A stretch of 64,000 bases of DNA, taken from Candidatus Komeilibacteria bacterium RIFOXYD1_FULL_37_29 (GTDB lineage: Bacteria > Patescibacteriota > Patescibacteriia > UBA1558 > GWA2-36-10). The notes under the pieces were generated by a model, which saw only the letters and a list, made by a program, of their open reading frames with translations, was not told where the DNA came from and made no database searches. Where the stretch lies: contig MHKS01000005.1 in assembly GCA_001818495.1 (NCBI GenBank), forward strand, positions 116,188 to 180,187, in the 5' to 3' direction. The position numbers and the translations under genes were made by a program. Positions 4,782 to 59,394 of the stretch are shown here, one piece after another; the first letter of the stretch is position 1; each line of letters opens with the position of its first letter.

Positions 4782-6779
4782 ATGAGGACTTTGGATTTTA
4801 AAAAAGAATTAAATCAAGAGCAATACGCGGTGGTCACAGCCACTGGCGGGCCACATTTAGTTTTGGCTGGCGCTGGGTCAGGTAAAACCAGAACTCTGAC
4901 TTATCGAGCTGCTTGGCTTATCAGTCAAGGCGTCAGTCCAGACAAAATACTACTTTTAACTTTTACCAATAAAGCGGCCGCCGAGATGATGGGCCGAGTC
5001 AAAAAATTACTGGGTCTAAAAGACAACGCCAAATTGCCGCTGTGGGGTGGGACTTTTCATTCTATTGCCAATCGGTTGCTGAGATTTTATGGAAAAAATA
5101 TTGATATTAGCTCCGATTTTACTATTTTAGATAGCGCCGATAGTGATAACTTTTTAAAATTGATTGCTAAAGACTATCTTGGCTCTTTGTCTAAAAAACA
5201 TCGTCCTTCTCCAGGAATGCTCCGGGAGACTATTAGTTTTGCTACAAATTCTGACATTAGTATTGCCGAAAGTTTGGAAACAAAATTTTCCGAATGGCTG
5301 CCACTTTTGGAAAATATAGAAAAAATTGCTAGTGAATATCAAAGACGAAAAAAAATAGCCAATGTTTTGGATTTTGATGACTTGTTAGTTTTTTGGAAAA
5401 AATTGACCGAGCAGTCTAAAGTCGGGAAAATTTTACAAAATAAATGGGAATATGTATTGGTTGACGAATACCAGGACACCAATACCATCCAAGCCGAAAT
5501 TATTTTTAATTTAACGCGCTCGCACGGAAATATATTGGCGGTTGGTGATGATGCTCAAAGCATTTATTCTTTTCGGGCGGCGGACATTAAAAATATTTTG
5601 CAGTTTCCGGAAAAATTTTCTAACACCACTATCCATAAATTAGAAACCAATTATCGTTCCACACCAGAAATACTAGATGTGGCCAATCAGATTATTTCCG
5701 CCAACGTCAAACAATTTGCTAAAAATCTCAAAGCAGTTAAAGAATCCCATGTCAGGCCGGAATTAGTAGCGCTCATGAGTCCGACACAGGAGGCAAATTT
5801 TGTTGCTGACAGGATAGAACAGCATTTAGAGCGTGGTATCCGGCCGGATCAAATCGCAGTTTTATTTAGAGCGGCGGCTTATAGCCAAAATTTGGAAATG
5901 GAGCTTAATCGCCGGGGAATAAATTATGAAATCAGAGGAGGCTTGAGATTTTTTGAAAGAGCCCATATTAAAGATGTTTTGTCTTATCTAAAGATAGTTG
6001 GTAATTTTAAGGACGAAGTTTCCTGGCTGAGAATTTTACAAATGCAGGAAGGCATTGGTCCGATTACGGCTTATCGGATTTATCAGCAGATTTTACAAAT
6101 CGGTGATTTATCCCAGCTCAGACAAGCAGATTTTAATATGGCTGATAAAGCTGGGATCTCTTGGGATAAGCTGTTGTTTGTTTTTGAAGAGCTGTTAAAA
6201 CACCAAAAAAGTAATGTCAGCCAATTGATTAATATTATTATAGAATTTTATCATCCCCATCTTCAGGAAAGTTTTTCTGATTATAGACAGCGACAGGATG
6301 ATTTGGAACAATTGACTATCTTTGCCTCTACTTATAAGGATTTAGCCTTATTTTTAAATGAGATTAGTTTACAAGAGAGTTTTTCCGGTCGGGAGTCTCA
6401 AAAAAAAGAGGATAATGTAGTCTTAAGCACTGTTCATCAAGCCAAAGGCTTGGAGTGGGAAGCGGTTTTTGTGATTAATATGACCGATCAATCCTTCCCC
6501 CATCCTTTGTGTGTCAGAGAAGAAGAAAGAGAAGAAGAAAGACGTCTTTTTTATGTAGCCTCAACTAGAGCTAGTCGTTATCTTTATTTGACTTATCCTT
6601 TGGCTATGTTTAGATATGATGGTTACCAGTCTTTAAAACCTTCACCGTTTTTGTCAGATATTGATAGTAATTTATTACATCACAATGATTTAGCCAGGAG
6701 TGCCACTTATGCCGCTGAAGACGGTGTAGAATATGTGGCTGATCCGGACGGGTTTTTACCAGACGTCAGTGACTGGTAA
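4782..6779 (+). CDS. pcrA: UvrD/PcrA-type superfamily-1 DNA helicase
   Basis: LVLAGAGSGKTRTLTYR (motif I), TFTNKAAAEM, GTFHS, VLVDEYQDTN (motif II), AVGDDAQSIYSFRAA, TNYRSTPEIL, TVHQAKGLEW. The start is set at the Met after an internal TATAAT box; the ORF as drawn from 4731 would add 17 hydrophobic residues. Confidence 0.8.
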   Translation: MRTLDFKKELNQEQYAVVTATGGPHLVLAGAGSGKTRTLTYRAAWLISQGVSPDKILLLTFTNKAAAEMMGRVKKLLGLKDNAKLPLWGGTFHSIANRLLRFYGKNIDISSDFTILDSADSDNFLKLIAKDYLGSLSKKHRPSPGMLRETISFATNSDISIAESLETKFSEWLPLLENIEKIASEYQRRKKIANVLDFDDLLVFWKKLTEQSKVGKILQNKWEYVLVDEYQDTNTIQAEIIFNLTRSHGNILAVGDDAQSIYSFRAADIKNILQFPEKFSNTTIHKLETNYRSTPEILDVANQIISANVKQFAKNLKAVKESHVRPELVALMSPTQEANFVADRIEQHLERGIRPDQIAVLFRAAAYSQNLEMELNRRGINYEIRGGLRFFERAHIKDVLSYLKIVGNFKDEVSWLRILQMQEGIGPITAYRIYQQILQIGDLSQLRQADFNMADKAGISWDKLLFVFEELLKHQKSNVSQLINIIIEFYHPHLQESFSDYRQRQDDLEQLTIFASTYKDLALFLNEISLQESFSGRESQKKEDNVVLSTVHQAKGLEWEAVFVINMTDQSFPHPLCVREEEREEERRLFYVASTRASRYLYLTYPLAMFRYDGYQSLKPSPFLSDIDSNLLHHNDLARSATYAAEDGVEYVADPDGFLPDVSDW

Positions 6780-6831: not shown

Positions 6832-7623
6832 ATGACAGAGAAGAAAGATAAAATAGTTTTTGACCTGGAGACTCAAAAAACTTTTGATGAGGTCGGTGGA
6901 CACCACAATAGTCATAAGCTGGGAGTTTCTTTGGTTGGTGTTTATTCCTATAACAAAGATAAATATCGTGGTTTTAAAGAAGAGGAGCTGGGAGAAGTTT
7001 TGGAGCTTTTTAAAAATGCCGAACTGCTGATTGGTTTTAATAGTAAGAGTTTTGATCTGACAGTCCTTCAGCCGTATTTTAAAGATTTTGATTTGCGCAC
7101 TATTCCCCATTTGGATATTTTGGAAGAAGTCGTTTATGCCTTGGGGCACCGCTTAAAATTGGAAAGCGTAGCTCAGAGCACTTTGGGCTATGGTAAATCC
7201 GGCTCAGGGTTGGATGCTATTATGTATTATCGCAATCAGGATTGGGATAATTTGATCAGATATTGTCTAGACGATGTCAAAGTAACCAAAGAAGTTTATG
7301 AATATGGACTGTCACATGGTAATATCTGGTATCACAATGCTGGTCGTAAAGAAAAAATAGTGGCTCGTTGGGGTCAGGGGCAGGAGCTGACAATTTTGGA
7401 TAAAATTAAAGAAGCTTTAATCAAAGGTCAGCAGGTAGAAATAGAATATATGGACGAAAAAGGTGAAACCACTATTAGAAAAATTGATATACAAAATATT
7501 AATGGTAATAAAATAAAAGCTTTTTGTCATCTGCGGGATGCTGTCCGTTTTTTTGAACTAGACCGAATAAAAAATATGAAAGTGACAGGGCAAATGAATT
7601 CTTGGCAAAATACATTATTGTAA
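6832..7623 (+). CDS. predicted 3'-5' exonuclease (RNase H-like/DEDD fold) fused to a C-terminal WYL domain
   Basis: N-terminus IVFDLETQKTFDEVGG is an Exo I-like motif, and there are later acidic motifs (CLDDVKV). The C-terminus VEIEYMDEKGETTIRKIDIQNI...AFCHLRDAVRFFELDRIKNMKV has a WYL-domain-like pattern. Confidence 0.5.
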   Translation: MTEKKDKIVFDLETQKTFDEVGGHHNSHKLGVSLVGVYSYNKDKYRGFKEEELGEVLELFKNAELLIGFNSKSFDLTVLQPYFKDFDLRTIPHLDILEEVVYALGHRLKLESVAQSTLGYGKSGSGLDAIMYYRNQDWDNLIRYCLDDVKVTKEVYEYGLSHGNIWYHNAGRKEKIVARWGQGQELTILDKIKEALIKGQQVEIEYMDEKGETTIRKIDIQNINGNKIKAFCHLRDAVRFFELDRIKNMKVTGQMNSWQNTLL

Positions 7624-7694
7624 AGTAATTAACACTCGCCTTGGTGGGTGTTTTTTTTGATTGATTTAATTTTAGATGGAGGCCGGGGATTGGG

Positions 7695-7722
7695 TTGACA
7701 AAAAGTGTATTTATTGTATAAT
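7695..7722 (+). promoter_or_regulatory. consensus sigma70 promoter TTGACA-N16-TGTATAAT
   Basis: TTGACA at 7695-7700 and an extended -10 TGTATAAT ending at 7722. It lies inside the longest six-frame ORF, so the real start must be downstream of it. Confidence 0.5.
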
Positions 7723-7786
7723 AATTGGTTATAGCTTAGTACAATTACACAATTTAGCGGGGTCTTACGGCTCTATAGGAGGATTT

Positions 7787-8122
7787 TTGAATAAGCTAAT
7801 GGTTGTTGCAGTTGTGGCATTAATTTGCTGCTTAATTGTTTTGTCTGGTTGTGAAAGTAAACAGAGCGAAGCGGAAAGACAGCGAGTTGCTCGGATGAAT
7901 GAACAGCTCAGTCGGGCTTATAACAGTGATATTCTAGAGATGCGCGACGGGAGCTTTGCTCTGGTGACCGGCCAAAACGATTTTGGCCTAGTGATCAGAT
8001 ATGCTATTGGAGCCAGCGGTCGGCAAAGCTACGAAACACTTTCGGAGAGGGTCATAGCTGTTTATACCAAAGATCACCCTGATCGTTGTCAGATTCTCGA
8101 GAAATTTATCGCGTCTTTCTGA
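7787..8122 (+). CDS. small lipoprotein (TTG start; lipobox LSGC), GC-rich gene
   Basis: AGGAGG is 5 nt upstream of TTG 7787. The signal peptide MNKLMVVAVVALICCLIVLSG-C has a lipobox. GC content is markedly higher than the flanking genes. A strong terminator lies downstream. Confidence 0.5.
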   Translation: MNKLMVVAVVALICCLIVLSGCESKQSEAERQRVARMNEQLSRAYNSDILEMRDGSFALVTGQNDFGLVIRYAIGASGRQSYETLSERVIAVYTKDHPDRCQILEKFIASF

Positions 8123-8178: not shown

Positions 8179-9015
8179 TTATTTTCTGAGCTTAGCTAGT
8201 TTGACGGTGTTATAAAGTAGCATCGCGACTGTCATAGGCCCAACTCCACCTGGTACTGGAGTAATAAACTTGGCTTTGGGGAAAACAGTACTATAGTCCA
8301 CATCGCCTATTATATAATTTTTATCTATTTTATTGGTGCCCACATCAATGACAATAACATCTTTTTTGACCATATTTTCTTTAATCAAAAATGGCTGGCC
8401 ACAGGAAACAATCAATATATCAGCCCGAGAAGTAATGACCCCCAAGTTTTTATCTTGCGGATTGACAATGACTACTTTAGCTTGACGGTCTGTGAGAATT
8501 TTACTCATCGGTTTACAGAAAACATGACTTTTGGAAACAATCACTGCTTCTTTGCCTTGGATATCTTCTTGGGTTTCTTCAATTAAGCGTAATATTCCCA
8601 AAGGCAGGCCAGGAGTGATACGAGCTTTGTTTTTTAAAAAGTTTTTGATGTTTTGTGGATGAAAACCATCAACGTCTTTTTTAGGATCAATGGCTTTGAT
8701 TATTTTGTCAGTGTCAAATTTTTCCGGCAGGGGTAACTGCACCAAGATAGCATCGATATCCTCGTCTTTATTTAAAAAATCTATTGTTTGCAAAATTTCG
8801 CTCTCATCAACTGACGCCATTAGTAAATACTCGTGAAAATTAATGCCAACATCTCGGGAGGCGATTTTCTTTTTGGCTACATAAAGTTGACTGGCTGGAT
8901 CTTGACCAACCAAAATAATAGCCAAACCAGGCGTTAGGTGCTGGTCGCTAATTTCTTTTCTAAGATTGGATTGTATTTTTTCGGCCAGTATTTTGCCGTC
9001 TAAAATTTTATTCAT
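8179..9015 (-). CDS. folD: bifunctional methylenetetrahydrofolate dehydrogenase/methenyl-THF cyclohydrolase FolD
   Basis: [15 protein letters not shown]..., the ...VGQDPASQLYV... segment, and the C-terminal PVPGGVGPMTVAMLLYNTV. Confidence 0.9.
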   Translation of the reverse strand: MNKILDGKILAEKIQSNLRKEISDQHLTPGLAIILVGQDPASQLYVAKKKIASRDVGINFHEYLLMASVDESEILQTIDFLNKDEDIDAILVQLPLPEKFDTDKIIKAIDPKKDVDGFHPQNIKNFLKNKARITPGLPLGILRLIEETQEDIQGKEAVIVSKSHVFCKPMSKILTDRQAKVVIVNPQDKNLGVITSRADILIVSCGQPFLIKENMVKKDVIVIDVGTNKIDKNYIIGDVDYSTVFPKAKFITPVPGGVGPMTVAMLLYNTVKLAKLRK

Positions 9016-10277
9016 TATAGTTTGGGGTATAGTTTGAACCTGGTCATCAAATCAATGATAGTTTGTTTGTTTTTGTCTGTCGCTTGTTTGGTTTTCAAAG
9101 TGTCTATCAGCACCGTGGCGACAATTTCTATATCTTTTTCTTTTAGCCCGCGGGTAGTGAGTGCAGCTGTACCTAGTCTAATGCCCGATGGATCAAAAGG
9201 ACTGCGCTTGTCATAAGGAATCATATTTTTATTGGTAAAAATATGGACCTGGTCTAATAGATTTTCCGCTTCTTTGCCGGATAATCCTAAAGTAGTAACA
9301 TCAATCATCAAAAGATGATTGTCTGTACCATCTGAGATCATACGGATGTTGGCTTGACGGAATTTATCTTCCAAAAATTTACAGTTTGTTATAACTTGCT
9401 TTTGATATTTTTTAAACTCTGGAAGTAGCGCTTCACCAAAAGCTACGGCTTTGGCCGCAATAATATGTTCCAGTGGTCCGCCTTGCATACCAGGGAAAAC
9501 AGCGCTATCTATTTTTTGGGCGAGATTTTTTTTATCAGTAGGGTGGAGGCGATCATTTGTTTTACAAAGTATTATCGCACCGCGTGGTCCGCGTAAAGTC
9601 TTGTGGGTAGTAGTAGTGACGACATCGGCGTAAGACATAGGATCGGGATGGAGACCAGTGGCCACCAGTCCGGCAATATGAGCCATATCGACCATCAGAT
9701 AGGCGCCTACTTGATCGGCCACATCTTTAAAAGCTTTAAAATCAATTGTTCTAGAATAAGCGCTAGCTCCCGCTAAGATAATTTTTGGTCGGTGTTTTTT
9801 GGCAAGAGTCATCACTTTATTCATGTCTATTCGTTCGGTTTTTTGGTCGACACCATAGTGGACAAAATTATAAAATTTTCCGGAAAAATTGACGGGGTGT
9901 CCGTGAGTCAGGTGTCCACCATGAGCCAAAGAAAATCCCAAGATAGTATCACCTAGTTCAGCTAAAGCAAAATAAGCCTCCATGTTGGCTTGAGAGCCGG
10001 CGTGTGGCTGGACATTGACATGCTCAGCGCCAAAAAGTTTTTTAGCGCGATCTATGGCCAGCTGTTCGGATTGATCAATAAATTCATTGCCGCCGTAGTA
10101 TCTTTTGGACGGGTACCCTTCGGCATATTTATTGGTCAGTATTGATCCAGCAGCTTCCAGCACCGCCACAGATACAAAATTTTCTGAAGCAATCATTTCG
10201 GCGCCTGATCTTTGGCGGAGTAATTCTTTTTGGAGTATTTTACTAATTTCGGGGTCAATTTTTTCAATATTTTTCAT
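9015..10277 (-). CDS. glyA: serine hydroxymethyltransferase GlyA
   Basis: The PLP-lysine motif [14 protein letters not shown] is present, plus [14 protein letters not shown]. It is adjacent to folD in an operon-like arrangement. Confidence 0.9.
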
Positions 10278-10361
10278 GTTGGTCAGTGTTAATAACGATA
10301 TTTAGTTTAACATATTGTTGTTTTTTTACAAATAGAAAAGGCCCATTTTTACAGAGGCCTT

Positions 10362-11978
10362 TTATTTAGGAATAATCTTGGTCATATAAGTACCTTCTAG
10401 TTTATAACCGAGTTTACGATAATAATTTCTCACCCCAATACCCGAGATAACGGCTATTTTTGACAGACCTCTTTCCCTGGTAATCTTTTCGGCTTCAGCC
10501 ATTAGTTTTTTGCCAAAGCCCATGTGTTGGGTTTGAGATATTTCATCATCCTGAGCTTCGTTGTAAGTCGGAATCATTTTTCCATAAACATGTAGTTCTC
10601 TGACTAGGGAAGCGTTTTTTAACTCTGGTAATATATTATTGGCCGGCTGATCATTGAAGCGTAATCTCAAAAAAGCATAGAGCTTACTATGATCTTTGGA
10701 TTCAAAACTAATAAACAATTCGTCGCCAGCTGAAGCGCGGTAGGTTCTTTTAACCATGGCTACTTGATCAGTTTCCAGATTATTATCCCTTACTTCTCGA
10801 CATCTTAAACATTGACAACTCTGACCACGTTTTTTTAATTCTTTTTGTAAATATTGGCGCAGGTTGGTGATTTTATTACCAGCAATAATACTTTCTTCTG
10901 GTATGTCTCTAATCAGTCGGTTGATTCTGACCCAGGGGGGAGTAATGGTTTTTATTTTTAATAGTAATTCCAAAAGTTCTTTTTCAGAGTAAGGCTGATA
11001 TTTACCCGCCTGATACCATTTAGCTAGTTCAGCATATTCATTAACTACACAAGGGTATATTTTTATTTGATCGGGTTGCAAATCTTCTGAGCTATAGACA
11101 TATTCCATCATCGCTAGGTCTTTGGCCGGAGTTGATCCGGGCAGATCAGGCATATAATGATGGTCTACTTTAAAACCAGTTTCTTTGAGTAGTTTAGTAG
11201 CTTTGATAGACTCTTCGATACCATGACCGCGGACAATCAAATCCAATATTTTATTATCAGTGTGTTGCACTCCCAACTGGACACGCGTAGTACCTAAGGC
11301 GCGCATTTTTTTTATTTCCGTTGGGTTGATATAGTCTGGTCTAGTTTCTAAAGTCAGGCCAATTATTTTATATTTTTCGTCCTCATTTATTTTTTGCTCT
11401 TCTTCTAAGGACAGGGGCTCTCGCTTTTTTTCTTCGTCAAAAGTATTGGCGGCATAAAATAAGTCGCGGACAAATTCTCTTTGGTATTTTTCTGGATAAA
11501 CTGACCAGGTGCCCCCCAAAACCAATAGTTCTAGTTTATCTACCTCATGGCCGTTGTTTAAAAGAGCCCTGATGCGCATGGTTACTTGGCGAATAGGATC
11601 AAAGAGGTTCATCTTGGCTCTGGCGGCTGCTGGTTCATTGGACAAATAGCTTTTTGGCATATCCGGCTCAGTCGGGCAGTAGACGCATTTACCTGGGCAG
11701 ACAAAGGGTTTGGACAAGACAGTGATGACCGATACACCGCTCATAGTGCGTACCGCTCTTTTGACTAGGAGTTTTTCAAAATTTTTATTGGCTTTTAGCT
11801 CTCTCTTTTTAAGCAAATTTTTATATGCTACAATAAGATTAGCCTTGCTATCGGGGGCCATTTTATAGCGAGAAAATGTCTGCCGCAAAGCTTTGACAAA
11901 GTCCAATTCACTGCCATCTTTATATTGATAGAGTGCTTGGACTACTTTTTCCAAATTTTTGTTTATTTGCTCAGTCAT
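10362..11978 (-). CDS. Elp3-like radical SAM / GNAT acetyltransferase (tRNA U34 cm5 modification enzyme family)
   Basis: Radical-SAM cluster motif CPGKCVYCP, and a C-terminal GNAT fold (HMGFGKKLMAEAEKITRERG...). The length and domain order match Elp3. Confidence 0.75.
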   Translation of the reverse strand: MTEQINKNLEKVVQALYQYKDGSELDFVKALRQTFSRYKMAPDSKANLIVAYKNLLKKRELKANKNFEKLLVKRAVRTMSGVSVITVLSKPFVCPGKCVYCPTEPDMPKSYLSNEPAAARAKMNLFDPIRQVTMRIRALLNNGHEVDKLELLVLGGTWSVYPEKYQREFVRDLFYAANTFDEEKKREPLSLEEEQKINEDEKYKIIGLTLETRPDYINPTEIKKMRALGTTRVQLGVQHTDNKILDLIVRGHGIEESIKATKLLKETGFKVDHHYMPDLPGSTPAKDLAMMEYVYSSEDLQPDQIKIYPCVVNEYAELAKWYQAGKYQPYSEKELLELLLKIKTITPPWVRINRLIRDIPEESIIAGNKITNLRQYLQKELKKRGQSCQCLRCREVRDNNLETDQVAMVKRTYRASAGDELFISFESKDHSKLYAFLRLRFNDQPANNILPELKNASLVRELHVYGKMIPTYNEAQDDEISQTQHMGFGKKLMAEAEKITRERGLSKIAVISGIGVRNYYRKLGYKLEGTYMTKIIPK

Positions 11979-12669
11979 GAAAAATAATAGAATAAAAAAT
12001 GATTTGCGTTTGCTCTATGACGATATAGCCAAAGAATTTTCGGCTACTAGAGCTTATCCGTGGAAAGAATTACAAGTCTTTATACCATATATAAAGGATA
12101 ACTTCAAGATACTAGATTTGGGTTGTGGCAATGGTCGTTTGGTTAAATCTTTAGAGCAAGCTGATAAAAAATTGAATTATCTAGGAGTGGATTTTAGTAC
12201 CCAGCTGATAGAACAGGCCAAAAATAATCATCCACAAGCCAAGTTTATTACGGCTGATATGTCTGATTTGTCTTTTTATCCCGATACTTTTGATATGGTT
12301 TTTATGATTGCCTCTTTTCATCATTTACCTAGTAAGGCTGAAAGACTGGAATTATTATTTAATATCAATCGTTGGCTCAAGCCGGGTGGGTTACTATTTA
12401 TGACCAACTGGAATCTGTGGCAGAAAAAATATTGGCAATATGCTTTGGAAAATTTTTGGTCAAAAAAATCTTGGAATGATTTTTTTATTCCTTGGACTAC
12501 CAATAGTGGTGGTACAGTCTGGCGCTATTATCATAGTTTTAGCACCGGGGAATTAATTTCTCTACTTAAAACTACTGGTTTTGATCTGAAGCCAGAAGGA
12601 GTCTATCAGACGAAATGGAATGTCAATGCCTTTGTCAGAAAATCAACAAAATCAAAAGAGCTTTTTTAA
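11977..12669 (+). CDS. Trm9/ALKBH8-like class I SAM-dependent methyltransferase
   Basis: YDDIAKEFSATRAYPW, ILDLGCGNGRL (SAM motif I), FDMVFMIASFHHL, LKPGGLLFMTNW, DFFIPW, RYYHSFSTGEL. Order and spacing match Trm9-family methyltransferases. The start codon overlaps the Elp3 start divergently (CATG). Confidence 0.6.
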   Translation: MKNNRIKNDLRLLYDDIAKEFSATRAYPWKELQVFIPYIKDNFKILDLGCGNGRLVKSLEQADKKLNYLGVDFSTQLIEQAKNNHPQAKFITADMSDLSFYPDTFDMVFMIASFHHLPSKAERLELLFNINRWLKPGGLLFMTNWNLWQKKYWQYALENFWSKKSWNDFFIPWTTNSGGTVWRYYHSFSTGELISLLKTTGFDLKPEGVYQTKWNVNAFVRKSTKSKELF

Positions 12670-12687
12670 AAGCTCTTTTTTGGTTTT

Positions 12688-13065
12688 TTAATTAATATCT
12701 TTTTTTCTTTGGCCGAAAGCTTTTTCCTCTTCCTCTCGGGCTAGATCATGGGCATCATCAAAAAAGCCCTGATCTTTAAGATTGCACTCTAATATTTCAT
12801 GAAATAAGCGACGGTCTCGGGCTTCTCCCGATAGTGTATTGAGTATATAGATGTCCCAGCCCCTAATAGCTGTTGATTGGTGATATTCCGCTCCATCGGA
12901 CACCGAATCAGTTTCTTCTTCACTGTCTAGTAGTAGTAAAAAATGCGAGCCATTGTAGGAAAATTCATGACGTTCTTTCCAAGTGATATTATTTATCACC
13001 GACATCAGTTCGTCAATATTTATTTCTGGTTTTTTGATTTGTTCTATTTTTTCTATAGTAGGCAT
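12688..13065 (-). CDS. hypothetical acidic protein
   Basis: 125-aa ORF tightly packed between neighbours; no recognisable domain. Confidence 0.4.
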   Translation of the reverse strand: MPTIEKIEQIKKPEINIDELMSVINNITWKERHEFSYNGSHFLLLLDSEEETDSVSDGAEYHQSTAIRGWDIYILNTLSGEARDRRLFHEILECNLKDQGFFDDAHDLAREEEEKAFGQRKKDIN

Positions 13066-13073
13066 ATAGTCTA

Positions 13074-14132
13074 TTATTGTGGGTTACTTTGTAAATAAGC
13101 TTCACATTCTTCTATGATCAAGGTTCTTAAATCATCGGTGGTGTTTTTATCAAAATTTAAGCGAGCTTTATTGTGCATAGTAGTCAGAGGTTGCAATGTT
13201 TCAGTAGTTTTTGATAGATCAATTGACTCTTCGTTGCCTTGCATAGTTAGACGACCTCTTTTGATAAATGATTTAAGAAGTTGGATAACGCTTTTATCTC
13301 CATAGGAATTTAAAATAGTTTGTATGGCCTGACGCGTTTTATCCCAGTCTTCGGAGCGGCGAAGCTCTTCCAAACCAATGCTCATAGTAAAATCTAATAA
13401 GTCCGTAGTTTTTTTATCTATTTCGCTGGTAGATTTTTCTTCATTGTAAACTATATCAGGAATATTTAGTATGGGCTGAGAAATTTCCCCAGTAGATTTT
13501 TTTTGAAAAATGATATCGCTAGGCAAGACTTCACCAAGTGCTCCATGTTTTTGGTGTGTAGTCTGGATATATTGAGCGGATTGAGCCAGTGCTGCAAAAC
13601 GATCTATTTGGTTTAGGTCATCAGATTGCAGTAAATCAGCGCGGTAAATATCTTGCAAAGGCCTGCCGGCTTTGTATATATTTTGATCCTTTATTTCAAT
13701 GCCCCAATCGTGTAATCCATAGGCCTCTTCCAATCCCAGCCGTTCAATATTTTTATTTATTTCTTCTGGCGTGCCACGGTATCTTTTGGTGCCAGGGACC
13801 AAAAACTTAAAAAACCAGCCAGGGTGTTTTTTAAACATTTCCAGGGGATTTTTGGTCACATGTTCATCATAAGTTCTTAGCACGGCATCACCAAAGCGAT
13901 CAATTTTTGACACTACACCTCGCATATCAAAAACCATTCTTTCCTCTTCATCGTAATTTATTTTTCCACCATAGACACCGACAGTGCTTTCATAACCCAA
14001 AATTTCTTGGGTGGGTAAGTGTGATTCTTGTACTCTTTTTTGGACACTAGAACCGAGCTTATTTAATAAACTTTCTTTTTCTTCAGACCGATCTTCTTTG
14101 TTTGGGGTAGTGATTTTTTCAAAATTATTCAT
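13074..14132 (-). CDS. hypothetical protein (possibly an atypical kinase-like fold)
   Basis: Long ORF with host-like composition. Weak HG.LGE..P.DIIF and LHDWG motifs are reminiscent of a kinase catalytic loop, but not convincingly. Confidence 0.4.
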   Translation of the reverse strand: MNNFEKITTPNKEDRSEEKESLLNKLGSSVQKRVQESHLPTQEILGYESTVGVYGGKINYDEEERMVFDMRGVVSKIDRFGDAVLRTYDEHVTKNPLEMFKKHPGWFFKFLVPGTKRYRGTPEEINKNIERLGLEEAYGLHDWGIEIKDQNIYKAGRPLQDIYRADLLQSDDLNQIDRFAALAQSAQYIQTTHQKHGALGEVLPSDIIFQKKSTGEISQPILNIPDIVYNEEKSTSEIDKKTTDLLDFTMSIGLEELRRSEDWDKTRQAIQTILNSYGDKSVIQLLKSFIKRGRLTMQGNEESIDLSKTTETLQPLTTMHNKARLNFDKNTTDDLRTLIIEECEAYLQSNPQ

Positions 14133-36351: not shown

Positions 36352-36382
36352 AACACCCCGCCTTGGTGGGGTGTTTTGTTTT
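36352..36382. terminator. bidirectional rho-independent terminator
   Basis: aaaaaa-caccccgcc-ttgg-tggggtg-ttttgtttt; it lies between convergent ppsA and the transporter gene. Confidence 0.55.
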
Positions 36383-37334
36383 ATAAAATAGTAGCCCAAA
36401 TGGGAATAGTGATAATCGATAAAATAGTACTGAGCACTATAGCTTTGCTAATAAATTTTTTATCGAGGTCAAATTTATCAGCCAGAGCAAAAGGGGTAAT
36501 GGCTAGTGGCATAGCAAACTCTATCAGCGATGGCATATATTTGTCTAGGTCAGAAGAAAATATTTTTACGCCGTAATAAAATGCCCCGGGGATTATCAAT
36601 AAAGTGATGCCGGTAAAAATAATAGCCGGCCACCAGTCTTTGATTTGGCCAAGCTTGGATTGGCCGATAAATAGTCCAATGACCACCAGGACCACTGGTG
36701 TGACCGAAGCAGCTAACATATCAATAGCCGAGCTCAGGAAAAAAGGCAATTTGATTCCCGAGAAAGCTATCAGTAATCCTAGAAAAATGGAAACTAAGAG
36801 AGGATTTTTTAATAGGTCAATACCGATATGGGTGATAATTTCAGAGGGAGCTTTTTTATGAAACAATTTGCCGATCCAGCTCTGGCGTTGTTTTAATTGG
36901 TAATCCAAAAAACCCAAGCCCACGGTAAAGATCCAAAATAAATGGATGCCGATAATCAGACTAACCTCAGGCATTATTTTTTGTCCGTAAATTTGCATTA
37001 GTATTGGCGGACCAAGATAAGCAATGTTACCAAAGGCCAGACAAATAAAAAGCGTCTTGATGGTTTTTGTTTTGATTTTGGTGGTTTTACCCAAAATATA
37101 TATAATCAAAAAACAAAGTAGTAAAAATAGCGAGTTGGCTAAAATAATATCTCCTTTGCCAGTTAAAGACACCTTGGCTAAAGAACTAAAAATCAAAGCC
37201 GGTAAGCCGATATTTAAAGCAAAAGAATTTAATATTTGGGACCATTGGTTATCCAAATTTTTAAATTTGCCGATAATAGCGCTCGCAAAAATTATTAAAA
37301 ATAGGGGAAGAATGACTAAAAATATTTCTAACAT
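36381..37334 (-). CDS. AEC-family (auxin efflux carrier-like) membrane transporter
   Basis: 317 aa with about 10 TM helices; the N-terminus MLEIFLVILPLFLIIFASAIIGKF and overall topology fit Mem_trans/AEC permeases. Confidence 0.55.
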   Translation of the reverse strand: MLEIFLVILPLFLIIFASAIIGKFKNLDNQWSQILNSFALNIGLPALIFSSLAKVSLTGKGDIILANSLFLLLCFLIIYILGKTTKIKTKTIKTLFICLAFGNIAYLGPPILMQIYGQKIMPEVSLIIGIHLFWIFTVGLGFLDYQLKQRQSWIGKLFHKKAPSEIITHIGIDLLKNPLLVSIFLGLLIAFSGIKLPFFLSSAIDMLAASVTPVVLVVIGLFIGQSKLGQIKDWWPAIIFTGITLLIIPGAFYYGVKIFSSDLDKYMPSLIEFAMPLAITPFALADKFDLDKKFISKAIVLSTILSIITIPIWATIL

Positions 37335-51383: not shown

Positions 51384-52334
51384 ATGAAGGGAAATAGGCC
51401 TAAAAAAATATTGGTTTCTGGTTCCATTGTTTATGATCGGATTATGAATTTTCCCGGTCTTTTTAAAGATCATATTTTGCCCGATCAAACGCATATTTTA
51501 AATGTTAGCTTTACTTTGGCTAGTACCAATGAAAGCTTTGGCGGTACAGCCGGCAATATTGCTTACAATTTATCCTTACTCAAAGAGCCAGTAGTTTTAC
51601 TTGGTTTAGTCGGTAGTGATTTTGAGCGTTACCGGAAGTGGCTTCAGAAAAATCGAGTAGATTTTTCTTATGTTAGAAAAGTAAAAAATACTCCGACGGC
51701 TTCCGCTTATATTATGACCGATCAGGCTGACAATCAGATTTCCGGGTTTTATCCTGGCCCAGCTGATGTGGATTATTGCGCTTTGGTTAGAAAAATAAAA
51801 AATCCGGCTCTAGCAATTGTTTCACCGGATTTTAAACCGCGCATGATCGAGTATGTCAGATTGTATAAAGAGCTGGGCATAGATTATATTTTTGATCCCG
51901 GTCAGCAAATTACTTCTTTTACGACTTTTGAACTGCGCCAATTAATTAGTGGTGCCAAAGTACTAATTGGTAATGATTATGAAATAAAATTGATCTTGAA
52001 TAAACTAAAAACTGATTTGGATAAATTGCAAAAATTGGTGGAGATACTAGTAGTGACCAAAGGCGCCCTCGGTTCGCAGATATATTTTAAAGATGAGCGG
52101 ATTGATATCGATCCCGTTAAGGTCAAAGAGGCGCTTGATCCCACTGGGGCTGGTGATGCTTATCGGGCTGGACTGATCAAAGGGCTACTTAGTGGAGCTG
52201 GTCTAGAAAAAGCCGGACGTCTGGCCAGTACGGTAGCGGCTTATACAGTGGAAGCACTTGGTACGCAAACCCATCATTTTACTTTAAAAGAATTTACTAA
52301 TCGCTATAAACAAAATTATGAAATACGACGTTAA
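51384..52334 (+). CDS. PfkB-family carbohydrate/nucleoside kinase (likely adenosine kinase)
   Basis: C-terminal [12 protein letters not shown] is the ribokinase-family anion hole. It overlaps the downstream adenosylhomocysteinase gene. Confidence 0.7.
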
Positions 52335-58935: not shown

Positions 58936-59394
58936 ATGTTTATTACCCCACATACATCACTAGCTTTGTGGATTAGTACCAGGATTACTGATCCGCTTTT
59001 GGCTTTTATTTTGGGTGTAGTATCACATTTTGTCTTGGATATTATTCCCCATGGTGACGAACAGTTGGGCAGGCACATTAAAGACAAAAAGCAGAGATTT
59101 ATCTATTTTATAAAGGTAGCGACAGTTGATCTAGCTTTAGCTATTTTGCTTTTATATTTTTTTGTCGCCCATGGTCCGATAGTTAATTATTATGTTTTAG
59201 CTTCGGCTGTTTTTGGCACTTGGATACCAGATTTTAGCTGGATCGCTATAGAGTATTTTAAGTTAAACAAGTTTTATTGGTATATAGTTTATCATGAAAG
59301 GGTTCATCGGCTGATTAATTGGCAATACTCTATAGTTTACGGGGTGCCTTTTCAAATTATTGTTACTTTGTCTGTATTAAAAATATCTTTTTAA
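58936..59394 (+). CDS. possible membrane-bound metal-dependent hydrolase (DUF457/YdjM-like)
   Basis: SHFVLDIIPHGDE motif (H..xD...H) at the end of a TM helix; 152 aa. Confidence 0.3.
   Translation: MFITPHTSLALWISTRITDPLLAFILGVVSHFVLDIIPHGDEQLGRHIKDKKQRFIYFIKVATVDLALAILLLYFFVAHGPIVNYYVLASAVFGTWIPDFSWIAIEYFKLNKFYWYIVYHERVHRLINWQYSIVYGVPFQIIVTLSVLKISF

Follow-up and report, generated by a model that had tools for sequence, protein, structure and literature searches.

Known Elp3-Trm9 systems and a bacterial counterpart

Wobble-uridine (U34) modification of the 5-methoxycarbonylmethyluridine (mcm5U) type is treated as a eukaryotic and archaeal trait, and bacteria are described as using MnmEG. Here we examine a head-to-head pair of genes, encoding an Elp3 protein and a methyltransferase of the Trm9 type, in a 64,000-nucleotide stretch of contig MHKS01000005.1 from Candidatus Komeilibacteria bacterium RIFOXYD1_FULL_37_29. 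This whole stretch, referred to below as the window, has a guanine plus cytosine content of 37%, and its nearest relatives are metagenome-assembled Patescibacteria.

In the archaeon Haloferax volcanii, Trm9 together with Trm112 forms mcm5U both in vivo and in vitro, the haloarchaeal enzyme (HvoTrm9) depends on Trm112 in vivo, and in Sulfolobus the genes for Elp3 and Trm9 cluster (PMC6144793). Archaeal Elp3, purified as the sole protein, forms 5-carboxymethyluridine (cm5U) in vitro (summarised in PMC7663514). Reviews have portrayed bacterial Elp3 as rare and restricted to Dehalococcoides and have seen no evidence of cm5U-derived (xcm5U) modifications in bacteria (PMC7663514, PMC6367351); they term the Elp3 of Dehalococcoides mccartyi (DmcElp3) 'a rare example' and make no mention of a partner methyltransferase. 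A 2017 review stated that no homologues of Trm112-dependent methyltransferases, Trm9 included, were detectable in bacterial genomes (PMC5372719), and a 2026 paper remarks that 'numerous bacteria' retain Elp3 and goes no further (PMC13315578). Our literature searches on Elp3/MnmG or wobble modification in Patescibacteria, the candidate phyla radiation and Chloroflexi returned nothing relevant.

The pair and its junction occupy the following positions of the window:

10362-11978, minus strand: Elp3 gene, 538 amino acids (aa), with a basic N-terminal extension, a radical S-adenosylmethionine (SAM) domain, a zinc linker and a C-terminal GNAT/KAT (acetyltransferase) domain.
11977-12669, plus strand: gene for a homologue of the Trm9-type tRNA (carboxymethyluridine-5-O)-methyltransferase, 230 aa, beginning MKNNRIKNDL.
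11976-11979, both strands: CATG, the overlapping start codons of the divergent pair, as read from the sequence.

We propose, with a probability of about 0.78, that this locus is a self-contained divergent two-gene module for wobble-uridine modification of the archaeal and eukaryotic type, in which cm5U34 would be formed and then converted to mcm5U34.

The locus resembles the archaeal system (H. volcanii HVO_1032 and Trm112; the Sulfolobus solfataricus cluster) in its stand-alone Elp3 without Elp1, Elp2 and Elp4-6, in the three-cysteine zinc motif and basic N-terminal extension of that protein, in the active-site residues of Trm9 and in the physical clustering of the genes. It differs from the archaeal system in its bacterial host, in its head-to-head genes with overlapping starts, in having no Trm112 gene in the neighbourhood and in the change of two of six hydrophobic Trm112-contact positions, as read by hand from an alignment with Yarrowia lipolytica Trm9 (YlTrm9). 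With the eukaryotic Elongator (Elp1-6) and Trm9/ALKBH8-Trm112 it shares both catalytic proteins and the predicted chemistry leading from U34 through cm5U34 to mcm5U34, and each residue at which a mutation in yeast Trm9 abolishes activity or zymocin sensitivity is conserved in the window. Unlike the eukaryotic system, it has neither accessory Elongator subunits nor the AlkB and RRM domains of ALKBH8, its genes are adjacent rather than dispersed, and Trm112 was not found in the window or in 85 related loci.

DmcElp3, the structurally characterised bacterial Elp3, is alike in its stand-alone state, its zinc motif, its domain arrangement and the glutamate that it has at residue 386 (E461 in the window protein). 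However, the N-terminus of DmcElp3 is much shorter, and the protein binds tRNA weakly and is very weakly active (PMC7663514), whereas the Elp3 of the window carries some 90 lysine- and arginine-rich N-terminal residues and aligns with eukaryotic Elp3 from residue 13. The bacterial MnmE-MnmG/MnmC route to 5-carboxymethylaminomethyluridine (cmnm5U) and 5-methylaminomethyluridine (mnm5U) has the same target, C5 of the wobble uridine, and the same purpose, the decoding of split codon boxes, but it employs an unrelated chemistry based on GTPase, flavin adenine dinucleotide (FAD), methylene-tetrahydrofolate and glycine in place of radical SAM and acetyl-CoA. Neither MnmE nor MnmG is encoded in the 64-kb window.

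Identities of the two proteins

Pfam (Methyltransf_25/11) and NCBIfam give only generic class I calls for the methyltransferase; none of the named NCBIfam families reaches its curated cutoff on this protein, and the matches are limited to the SAM-binding core. Candidate assignments to UbiE (52.1 bits against a cutoff of 216), the MenG/UbiE subfamily (49.5 against 158), BioC (56.6 against 185), RlmA (31.5 against 303) and CmoB (28.3 against 209) were all rejected. The best sequence match in the PDB is YlTrm9 (5cm2_Z; 66.9 bits, 1.4e-17, residues 23-216), which a family profile of 53 members recovers at 101.9 bits (3.3e-28), the next match standing at 77 bits. We also built a hidden Markov model (HMM) from 38 named fungal Trm9 proteins and calibrated it on 177,635 distinct PDB sequences, where Trm9 scored 335 bits and any other chain 42.1 bits or less. 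The methyltransferase of the window scored 100.3 bits against this model over almost its full length. Profile-profile alignment (hhalign) of its family with fungal Trm9 gave a probability of 100% (E 3e-41, 209 aligned columns) and extended from the N-terminal helix (YDDIAKEFSATRAYPW against VYeqIAsHFSsTRYKPWP) through the C-terminal strand that contains the conserved N. By these calibrated profile scores, on which the placement is based rather than on a phylogenetic tree, the protein is a Trm9 orthologue, closer to Trm9 than to other characterised methyltransferase families. The initial annotation had claimed a motif-by-motif likeness to Trm9. Its motifs (IAKEFSATRAYPW, DLGCGNGR, FDMV..IASFHH, GGLLFMTNW, DFFIPW and RYYH..S.GEL) are present and fall on conserved blocks of fungal Trm9 in the profile-profile alignment, and the affiliation with UbiE or RlmA that it had named as the competing outcome is not borne out, given scores far under the cutoffs of those families.

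The active site of the enzyme is marked by three segments:

12115-12135, plus strand: SAM-binding motif I, DLGCGNG (residues 47-53), with D47, G49, C50 and G51 invariant in the family.
12319-12324, plus strand: H115-H116, equivalent to H115/H116 of Saccharomyces cerevisiae Trm9 (ScTrm9) by alignment to YlTrm9.
12523-12534, plus strand: R183-Y-Y185-H186, equivalent to ScTrm9 R241/Y243 by alignment to Trm9.

Mutagenesis and modelling of ScTrm9 identified Y18, R29, D72, H115, H116, W145, Q149, W168, R241, Y243 and N271 as needed for function or located at the cm5U pocket; H115 and H116 take part in U34 recognition and in positioning the cm5U carboxylate, and R241 and Y243 contact the cm5U carboxyl group (PMC4678810). 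The equivalents in the window are, in the same order, Y14, R25, D72, H115, H116, W145, Q149, W173, R183, Y185 and N215. We infer that ScTrm9 D72 corresponds to D72 of the window protein rather than to D47; both are invariant. The search of the representative library returned 150 methyltransferase relatives. Among 37 Patescibacteria-type and four archaeal sequences, most retain these Trm9 residues, the H115-H116 pair being present in 34-36 of the 37, in all four archaeal and in all 12 fungal sequences. The AlphaFold2 (AF2) model (predicted local distance difference test, pLDDT, 93.3) has a class I methyltransferase fold with Rossmann-like strand order. All Foldseek matches to it in the PDB are class I methyltransferases, with Trm9 at rank 2 and a target-normalised TM-score of 0.84.

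The divergent partner scores 542.6 bits against NCBIfam TIGR01211 (cutoff 350), covering model positions 29-521 of 522, and on its sequence the 538-aa protein is a full-length Elp3. Pfam recognises Radical_SAM, Radical_SAM_C and Acetyltransf_1; the last match is marginal (21 bits), and the TIGR01211 match spans the GNAT domain. The domain order read by the initial annotation, a radical-SAM segment with CPGKCVYCP followed by a C-terminal GNAT domain, is thus upheld. The closest PDB sequence is the Elp3 of Methanocaldococcus infernus (MinElp3; 3.6e-118, 398.8 bits), and further matches are the D. mccartyi protein (1.9e-109, 370 bits) and eukaryotic Elp3 (about 1e-93). The functional motifs are the following:

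11676-11699, minus strand: radical-SAM [4Fe-4S] motif CPGKCVYC (C94-x3-C98-x2-C101), read from the sequence, its cysteines invariant in 57 Elp3 homologues.
10800-10817, minus strand: three-cysteine zinc motif CQCLRC (C388, C390, C393), invariant in the 57 homologues.
10512-10529, minus strand: acetyl-CoA binding motif QHMGFG (residues 484-489) of the KAT domain, aligned with QHMGYG of MinElp3 and invariant in the 57 homologues.

Residues K148, K270, E461, H463 and Y519 correspond to K150, K266, Q461, H463 and Y517 of MinElp3, in which K150, K266, Q461 and Y517 are required for tRNA-induced acetyl-CoA hydrolysis (PMC6367351). The glutamate that replaces Q461 of MinElp3 matches E386 of DmcElp3. 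Overall, the 57 homologues, which come from related loci, show little or no variation at the cluster, zinc, acetyl-CoA and catalytic residues. The zinc motif is one that is conserved in bacterial and archaeal Elp3 and missing from eukaryotic Elp3 (PMC6367351). The N-terminal segment of about 90 residues contains 19 lysines and arginines. A loss of Elp3-specific residues, which would have spoken against the initial annotation, was not seen: the Cx3Cx2C motif, the zinc cysteines, QHxGxG and the MinElp3-equivalent residues are all retained.

Divergent pairing and overlapping starts

Elp3 lies divergently upstream of the methyltransferase gene in all three relatives that we looked up individually (68%, 60% and 42% identical), with overlapping called starts in two of them. 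Scanning a single representative genome for each GTDB species yielded 80 loci with a methyltransferase relative, at identities down to 26%, and in about 65 of these 80 species-representative genomes Elp3 was divergent and just upstream. Combining the 80 loci with the earlier loci and the window gave 84 entries: Elp3 was directly upstream in divergent orientation in 66, arranged otherwise in 3 and not seen in 15, of which 7 have too little upstream sequence to judge. The pairing persists down to 26-30% methyltransferase identity. Furthermore, when the open reading frames (ORFs) of all loci were clustered, the methyltransferase and Elp3 were the only families common to most of them, the next family occurring in 14 loci. 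The recurrent divergent pairing supports, independently of the protein comparisons, a functional link between Elp3 and the methyltransferase.

According to record titles, the loci with a methyltransferase relative belong to many lineages of Patescibacteria, to Anaerolineales and other Chloroflexota, to one metagenome-assembled genome (MAG) of Fermentibacteria and to a few archaea. The pairing with Elp3 itself extends over Patescibacteria, Anaerolineales, the Fermentibacteria MAG and two archaeal MAGs. This taxonomic spread needs care because several records are likely mislabelled or mis-binned. Pairs resembling those of Patescibacteria or Chloroflexi occur under the titles 'uncultured Gammaproteobacteria' (L006, L012, L021, L081), 'Nitrosomonadaceae' (L059) and 'Ignavibacteriales' (P0002), and these records with titles of unrelated phyla are probably mislabelled or mis-binned MAGs. 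In a Pacearchaeota MAG (L032, 248-2842) Elp3 adjoins the Trm9-like gene in the divergent and overlapping layout seen in bacteria, and in a Crenarchaeota MAG (L044, 456-2250) Elp3 lies downstream of the Trm9-like gene on the same strand. These archaeal pairs fit an ancient or transferred two-gene unit or, for L032, mis-binning. The automatic annotation of the Joint Genome Institute (JGI) already tags some of the methyltransferases TRM9 or ALKBH8-like, which counts against strong novelty. Neither the enzymes nor the pathway is new; a Trm9 in bacteria, coupled almost obligately to Elp3 over a very large bacterial radiation, appears not to have been described before.

At the junction of the two genes, plus-strand positions 11970-11985 read gctcagtCATGaaaaat, with C11976, A11977, T11978 and G11979. 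On the minus strand CAT (11976-11978) reads as the ATG of Elp3, and ATG at 11977-11979 is the methyltransferase start, the two codons having two bases in common. The automatic ORF call for the methyltransferase opens at an upstream TTG (11959) and not at the conserved ATG. The start at 11977 is matched by the N-termini of relatives (MKGEKIKNDL, MKSEKVKSHL), and the reading frame contains no further ATG until residue 101. For Elp3, tblastn alignments run from residue 1 in L001, L006 and L018, and eukaryotic Elp3 chains align from residue 13-14. The overlap of start codons noted by the initial annotation is therefore confirmed at 11976-11979, with both starts backed by homologues. Since the remaining clearly divergent pairs that were checked in the window lie about 60-170 bp apart on a crude gene map, the CATG overlap is real and the sole such case there. 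Starts that overlap as an in-frame CATG are possible in 13 of the 66 divergent loci, a count that takes in the window, and the overlap is consequently a recurring trait of the Elp3-methyltransferase pair and no one-off. In several further divergent loci the starts stand back-to-back with zero spacer, and gene finders called the same overlapping arrangement in L001 and L003/L004. The initial annotation called such an overlap unusual for divergent genes; within the window it is, though it recurs in this gene pair.

Predicted pathway, competing explanations and expression

Orthology suggests that Elp3 alone would bind tRNA through its basic N-terminal extension, that its Cx3Cx2C [4Fe-4S] cluster would cleave SAM to give a 5'-deoxyadenosyl radical, and that its KAT domain would take an acetyl unit from acetyl-CoA, the addition of which to C5 of U34 would yield cm5U34. 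From orthology and the conserved linkage, the Trm9 orthologue would then methyl-esterify the carboxyl group of cm5U with SAM, forming mcm5U34; R25 and H116 would position the carboxylate, H115 and N215 would read the uracil, and W145 and W173 would stack. The 'complete pathway' claimed for the pair by the initial annotation is in these terms a prediction: it builds on observed protein identities, conserved functional residues and recurrent pairing, and it extends to the chemistry, the substrate tRNAs and action free of Trm112.

Several points weigh against this proposal. DmcElp3, the one bacterial Elp3 assayed, is very weakly active (PMC7663514). The curated libraries Pfam and NCBIfam match the methyltransferase only generically. 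The fold comparison does not discriminate, an uncharacterised methyltransferase of Methanosarcina mazei (3sm3) ranking just above Trm9; in the sequence alignment with the methyltransferase of the window, 3sm3 is without the HH pair. Eukaryotic and haloarchaeal Trm9 need Trm112, and a pattern-based search with two zinc-knuckle signatures found no Trm112-like ORF in the 64-kb window or in about 6 kb around the gene in 80 related loci. A WecG/TagA glycosyltransferase gene follows or is fused to the methyltransferase gene in several Patescibacteria loci, two of which (L009 and L042) are without Elp3 within 6 kb. Finally, a sigma-70 promoter scan gave no sites beyond the level of shuffled sequences and none positioned for either gene.

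The pair may act on U34 and yet yield an end product other than plain mcm5U, such as 5-methoxycarbonylmethyl-2-thiouridine (mcm5s2U) or another xcm5U made through other enzymes (for example by MnmA-type 2-thiolation or by amidation), or it may need a distant Trm112 (YcaR-like) partner. We regard this as unlikely, and it is a refinement of the mcm5U module rather than a contradiction of it. Precedents exist in eukaryotes, where mcm5U on three tRNAs undergoes further thiolation and cm5U also gives rise to 5-carbamoylmethyluridine (ncm5U) (PMC6367351), and mutants of H. volcanii in trm9 or trm112 show no build-up of cm5U (PMC6144793). Moreover, Trm112 has short orthologues, with no known function, that are widespread among bacteria (PMC5372719), and our view of this genome is limited to 64 kb. 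Set against this, neither the window nor the related loci offer a third conserved neighbour that would suggest additional pathway genes, and ORF clustering recovered no conserved small neighbour gene at the related loci. Of the six hydrophobic contacts of YlTrm9 with Trm112 (positions from PMC4678810), mapped by hand, V59 corresponds to K44 and F78 to N66 in the window protein and the others stay hydrophobic or small, a weak hint that the enzyme may be independent of Trm112. The commonest neighbour after the pair is a protein of about 89 aa (MAKNSSKEGKLIGEITHYFGKIGVAVIKLKG...; L015 6862-7131 and 13 other loci), which lacks a cysteine motif and is therefore not Trm112-like. Extensions at the N-termini of P0179 and P0237 were considered as Trm112 fusions and rejected; they have no Pfam match and look like over-extended ORF calls.

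Alternatively, the methyltransferase might be derived from Trm9 and serve a different substrate (some other position in RNA, a carboxylate of a small molecule or a precursor of the cell envelope), its adjacency to Elp3 reflecting co-regulation or inherited synteny only. The generic family calls leave room for such a role, and adjacency or fusion to WecG/TagA recurs in some Patescibacteria. The glycosyltransferase lies directly 3' of the Trm9-like gene in L009 (6759-7541), L013 (2685-3488), L016 (1650-2513), L018 (6639-7394) and L022 (5831-6661), and in at least four cases the two form a single ORF of about 470-530 aa (L042 5953-7536, P0164, P0176 and P0235), the C-terminal extensions of the longer methyltransferase relatives being WecG/TagA glycosyltransferases. 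These fusions are either real or artefacts of assembly or gene calling, and we cannot tell which. The relatives in Anaerolineales point the same way, having replaced three substrate-contact residues (W29, Y185 and N215). Even so, the residues with which Trm9 contacts cm5U and U34 are kept in the window protein and in most Patescibacteria and archaeal relatives, the linkage to Elp3 survives across phyla while all other neighbours change, and the Trm9-profile score is far above that of any non-Trm9 methyltransferase, so that a different substrate for the window enzyme seems quite improbable.

That an Elp3 gene and an unrelated class I methyltransferase gene are adjacent by chance, with an overlap produced by mis-called starts, is scarcely credible: class I methyltransferases are abundant and mutually alike and the automatic call picks another start, but the pairing recurs in independent species-level genomes, both N-termini are conserved from residue 1, the methyltransferase frame having no other ATG from 11977 to residue 101, and the pairing counts and Trm9 profile scores already contradict this explanation.

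The Anaerolineales and Chloroflexota relatives (L047, L050-L055, L057-L068, L070, L072-L075 and L077-L085, with the methyltransferase at about 6001-6700 in most) retain the divergent Elp3. Among 24 that were aligned, W29 is replaced by Q in 23, Y185 by V or A in 23 and N215 by G or S in 23, and against fungal Trm9 profiles these proteins reach just 22-61 bits. Their recognition of the modified uridine may differ, or they may form another product. Apparent 'tandem paralogues' in the ORF clustering proved to be WecG genes linked through the fusions and not methyltransferases.

In the window locus and its roughly 65 counterparts a clear Trm9 orthologue is tightly tied to Elp3, and this holds over a very large radiation of uncultured bacteria. 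Should the predicted chemistry prove right, the known range of the Elongator-type pathway would widen, and biochemistry would gain a minimal natural two-protein system composed of a bacterial Elp3 whose N-terminal tRNA-binding extension is complete and a Trm9 possibly free of Trm112. The pair would also offer a marker for gene exchange between Patescibacteria and archaea, and the decoding properties of ultra-small bacteria would become directly testable. More speculatively, large parts of Patescibacteria, and in diverged form Anaerolineales, could use xcm5U34 made by a minimal Trm112-independent Elp3-Trm9 module, as a possible stand-in for MnmE-MnmG, possibly a single unit in common with archaea, whether acquired or inherited, with a zero-length head-to-head control region and possibly leaderless expression. 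We consider this broader scenario possible and still doubtful.

The 3' ends of the two genes carry the following elements:

10329-10368, minus strand: hairpin resembling a terminator, with a U-rich tail, where the Elp3 gene ends; it overlaps the Elp3 stop codon (folding energy -11.9 kcal/mol, z = -3.1 relative to shuffled sequences).
12648-12687, plus strand: hairpin resembling a terminator where the methyltransferase gene ends (folding energy -14.3 kcal/mol, z = -3.6).

These hairpins would close the unit on both sides. The one after the methyltransferase gene, which the terminator scan scores on both strands at 12654-12679, lies between that gene and a convergent gene at 12688-13065. No intergenic DNA separates the divergent starts, and the promoter and ribosome-loading region of each gene would therefore lie inside the first codons of the other. 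The head-to-head overlapping starts probably couple the expression of the two enzymes. Among the window genes of at least 100 aa, just 5 of 59 have a Shine-Dalgarno-like GGAG, AGGA or AAGG within 20 nt of the start; the lack of such a sequence is thus not peculiar to the pair, and short-leader or leaderless expression of the pair is plausible. A TATTAT, spotted by eye, stands 5 nt upstream of the Elp3 ATG. A/T-rich sequences resembling TATAAT occur right before the ATG of many window genes (for example 36381-37334, 58936-59394 and 51384-52334). Non-Shine-Dalgarno or leaderless initiation is suggested to be widespread in this organism.

Just downstream of Elp3 lie the genes for serine hydroxymethyltransferase (9015-10277, minus strand) and FolD (8179-9015, minus strand), the ATG of FolD overlapping the stop codon of the former by one base. 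Serine hydroxymethyltransferase is found beside or near Elp3 in 10 related loci, all of the Patescibacteria type (L001, L003/L004 and L005 included), and this proximity probably reflects lineage synteny rather than a functional link. Flanking ORFs of 125, 352 and 148 aa (12688-14132, minus strand; 7676-8122, plus strand) have no Pfam match at E <= 0.001 and are not conserved beside the pair in related loci. Farther away, positions 6832-7623 (plus strand) encode a 263-aa protein with an RNase H-like/3'-5' exonuclease domain and a C-terminal WYL domain. Two queuosine genes stand side by side on the plus strand with a 4-base overlap, encoding the epoxyqueuosine reductase QueH (691-1254) and QueA (1251-2303).

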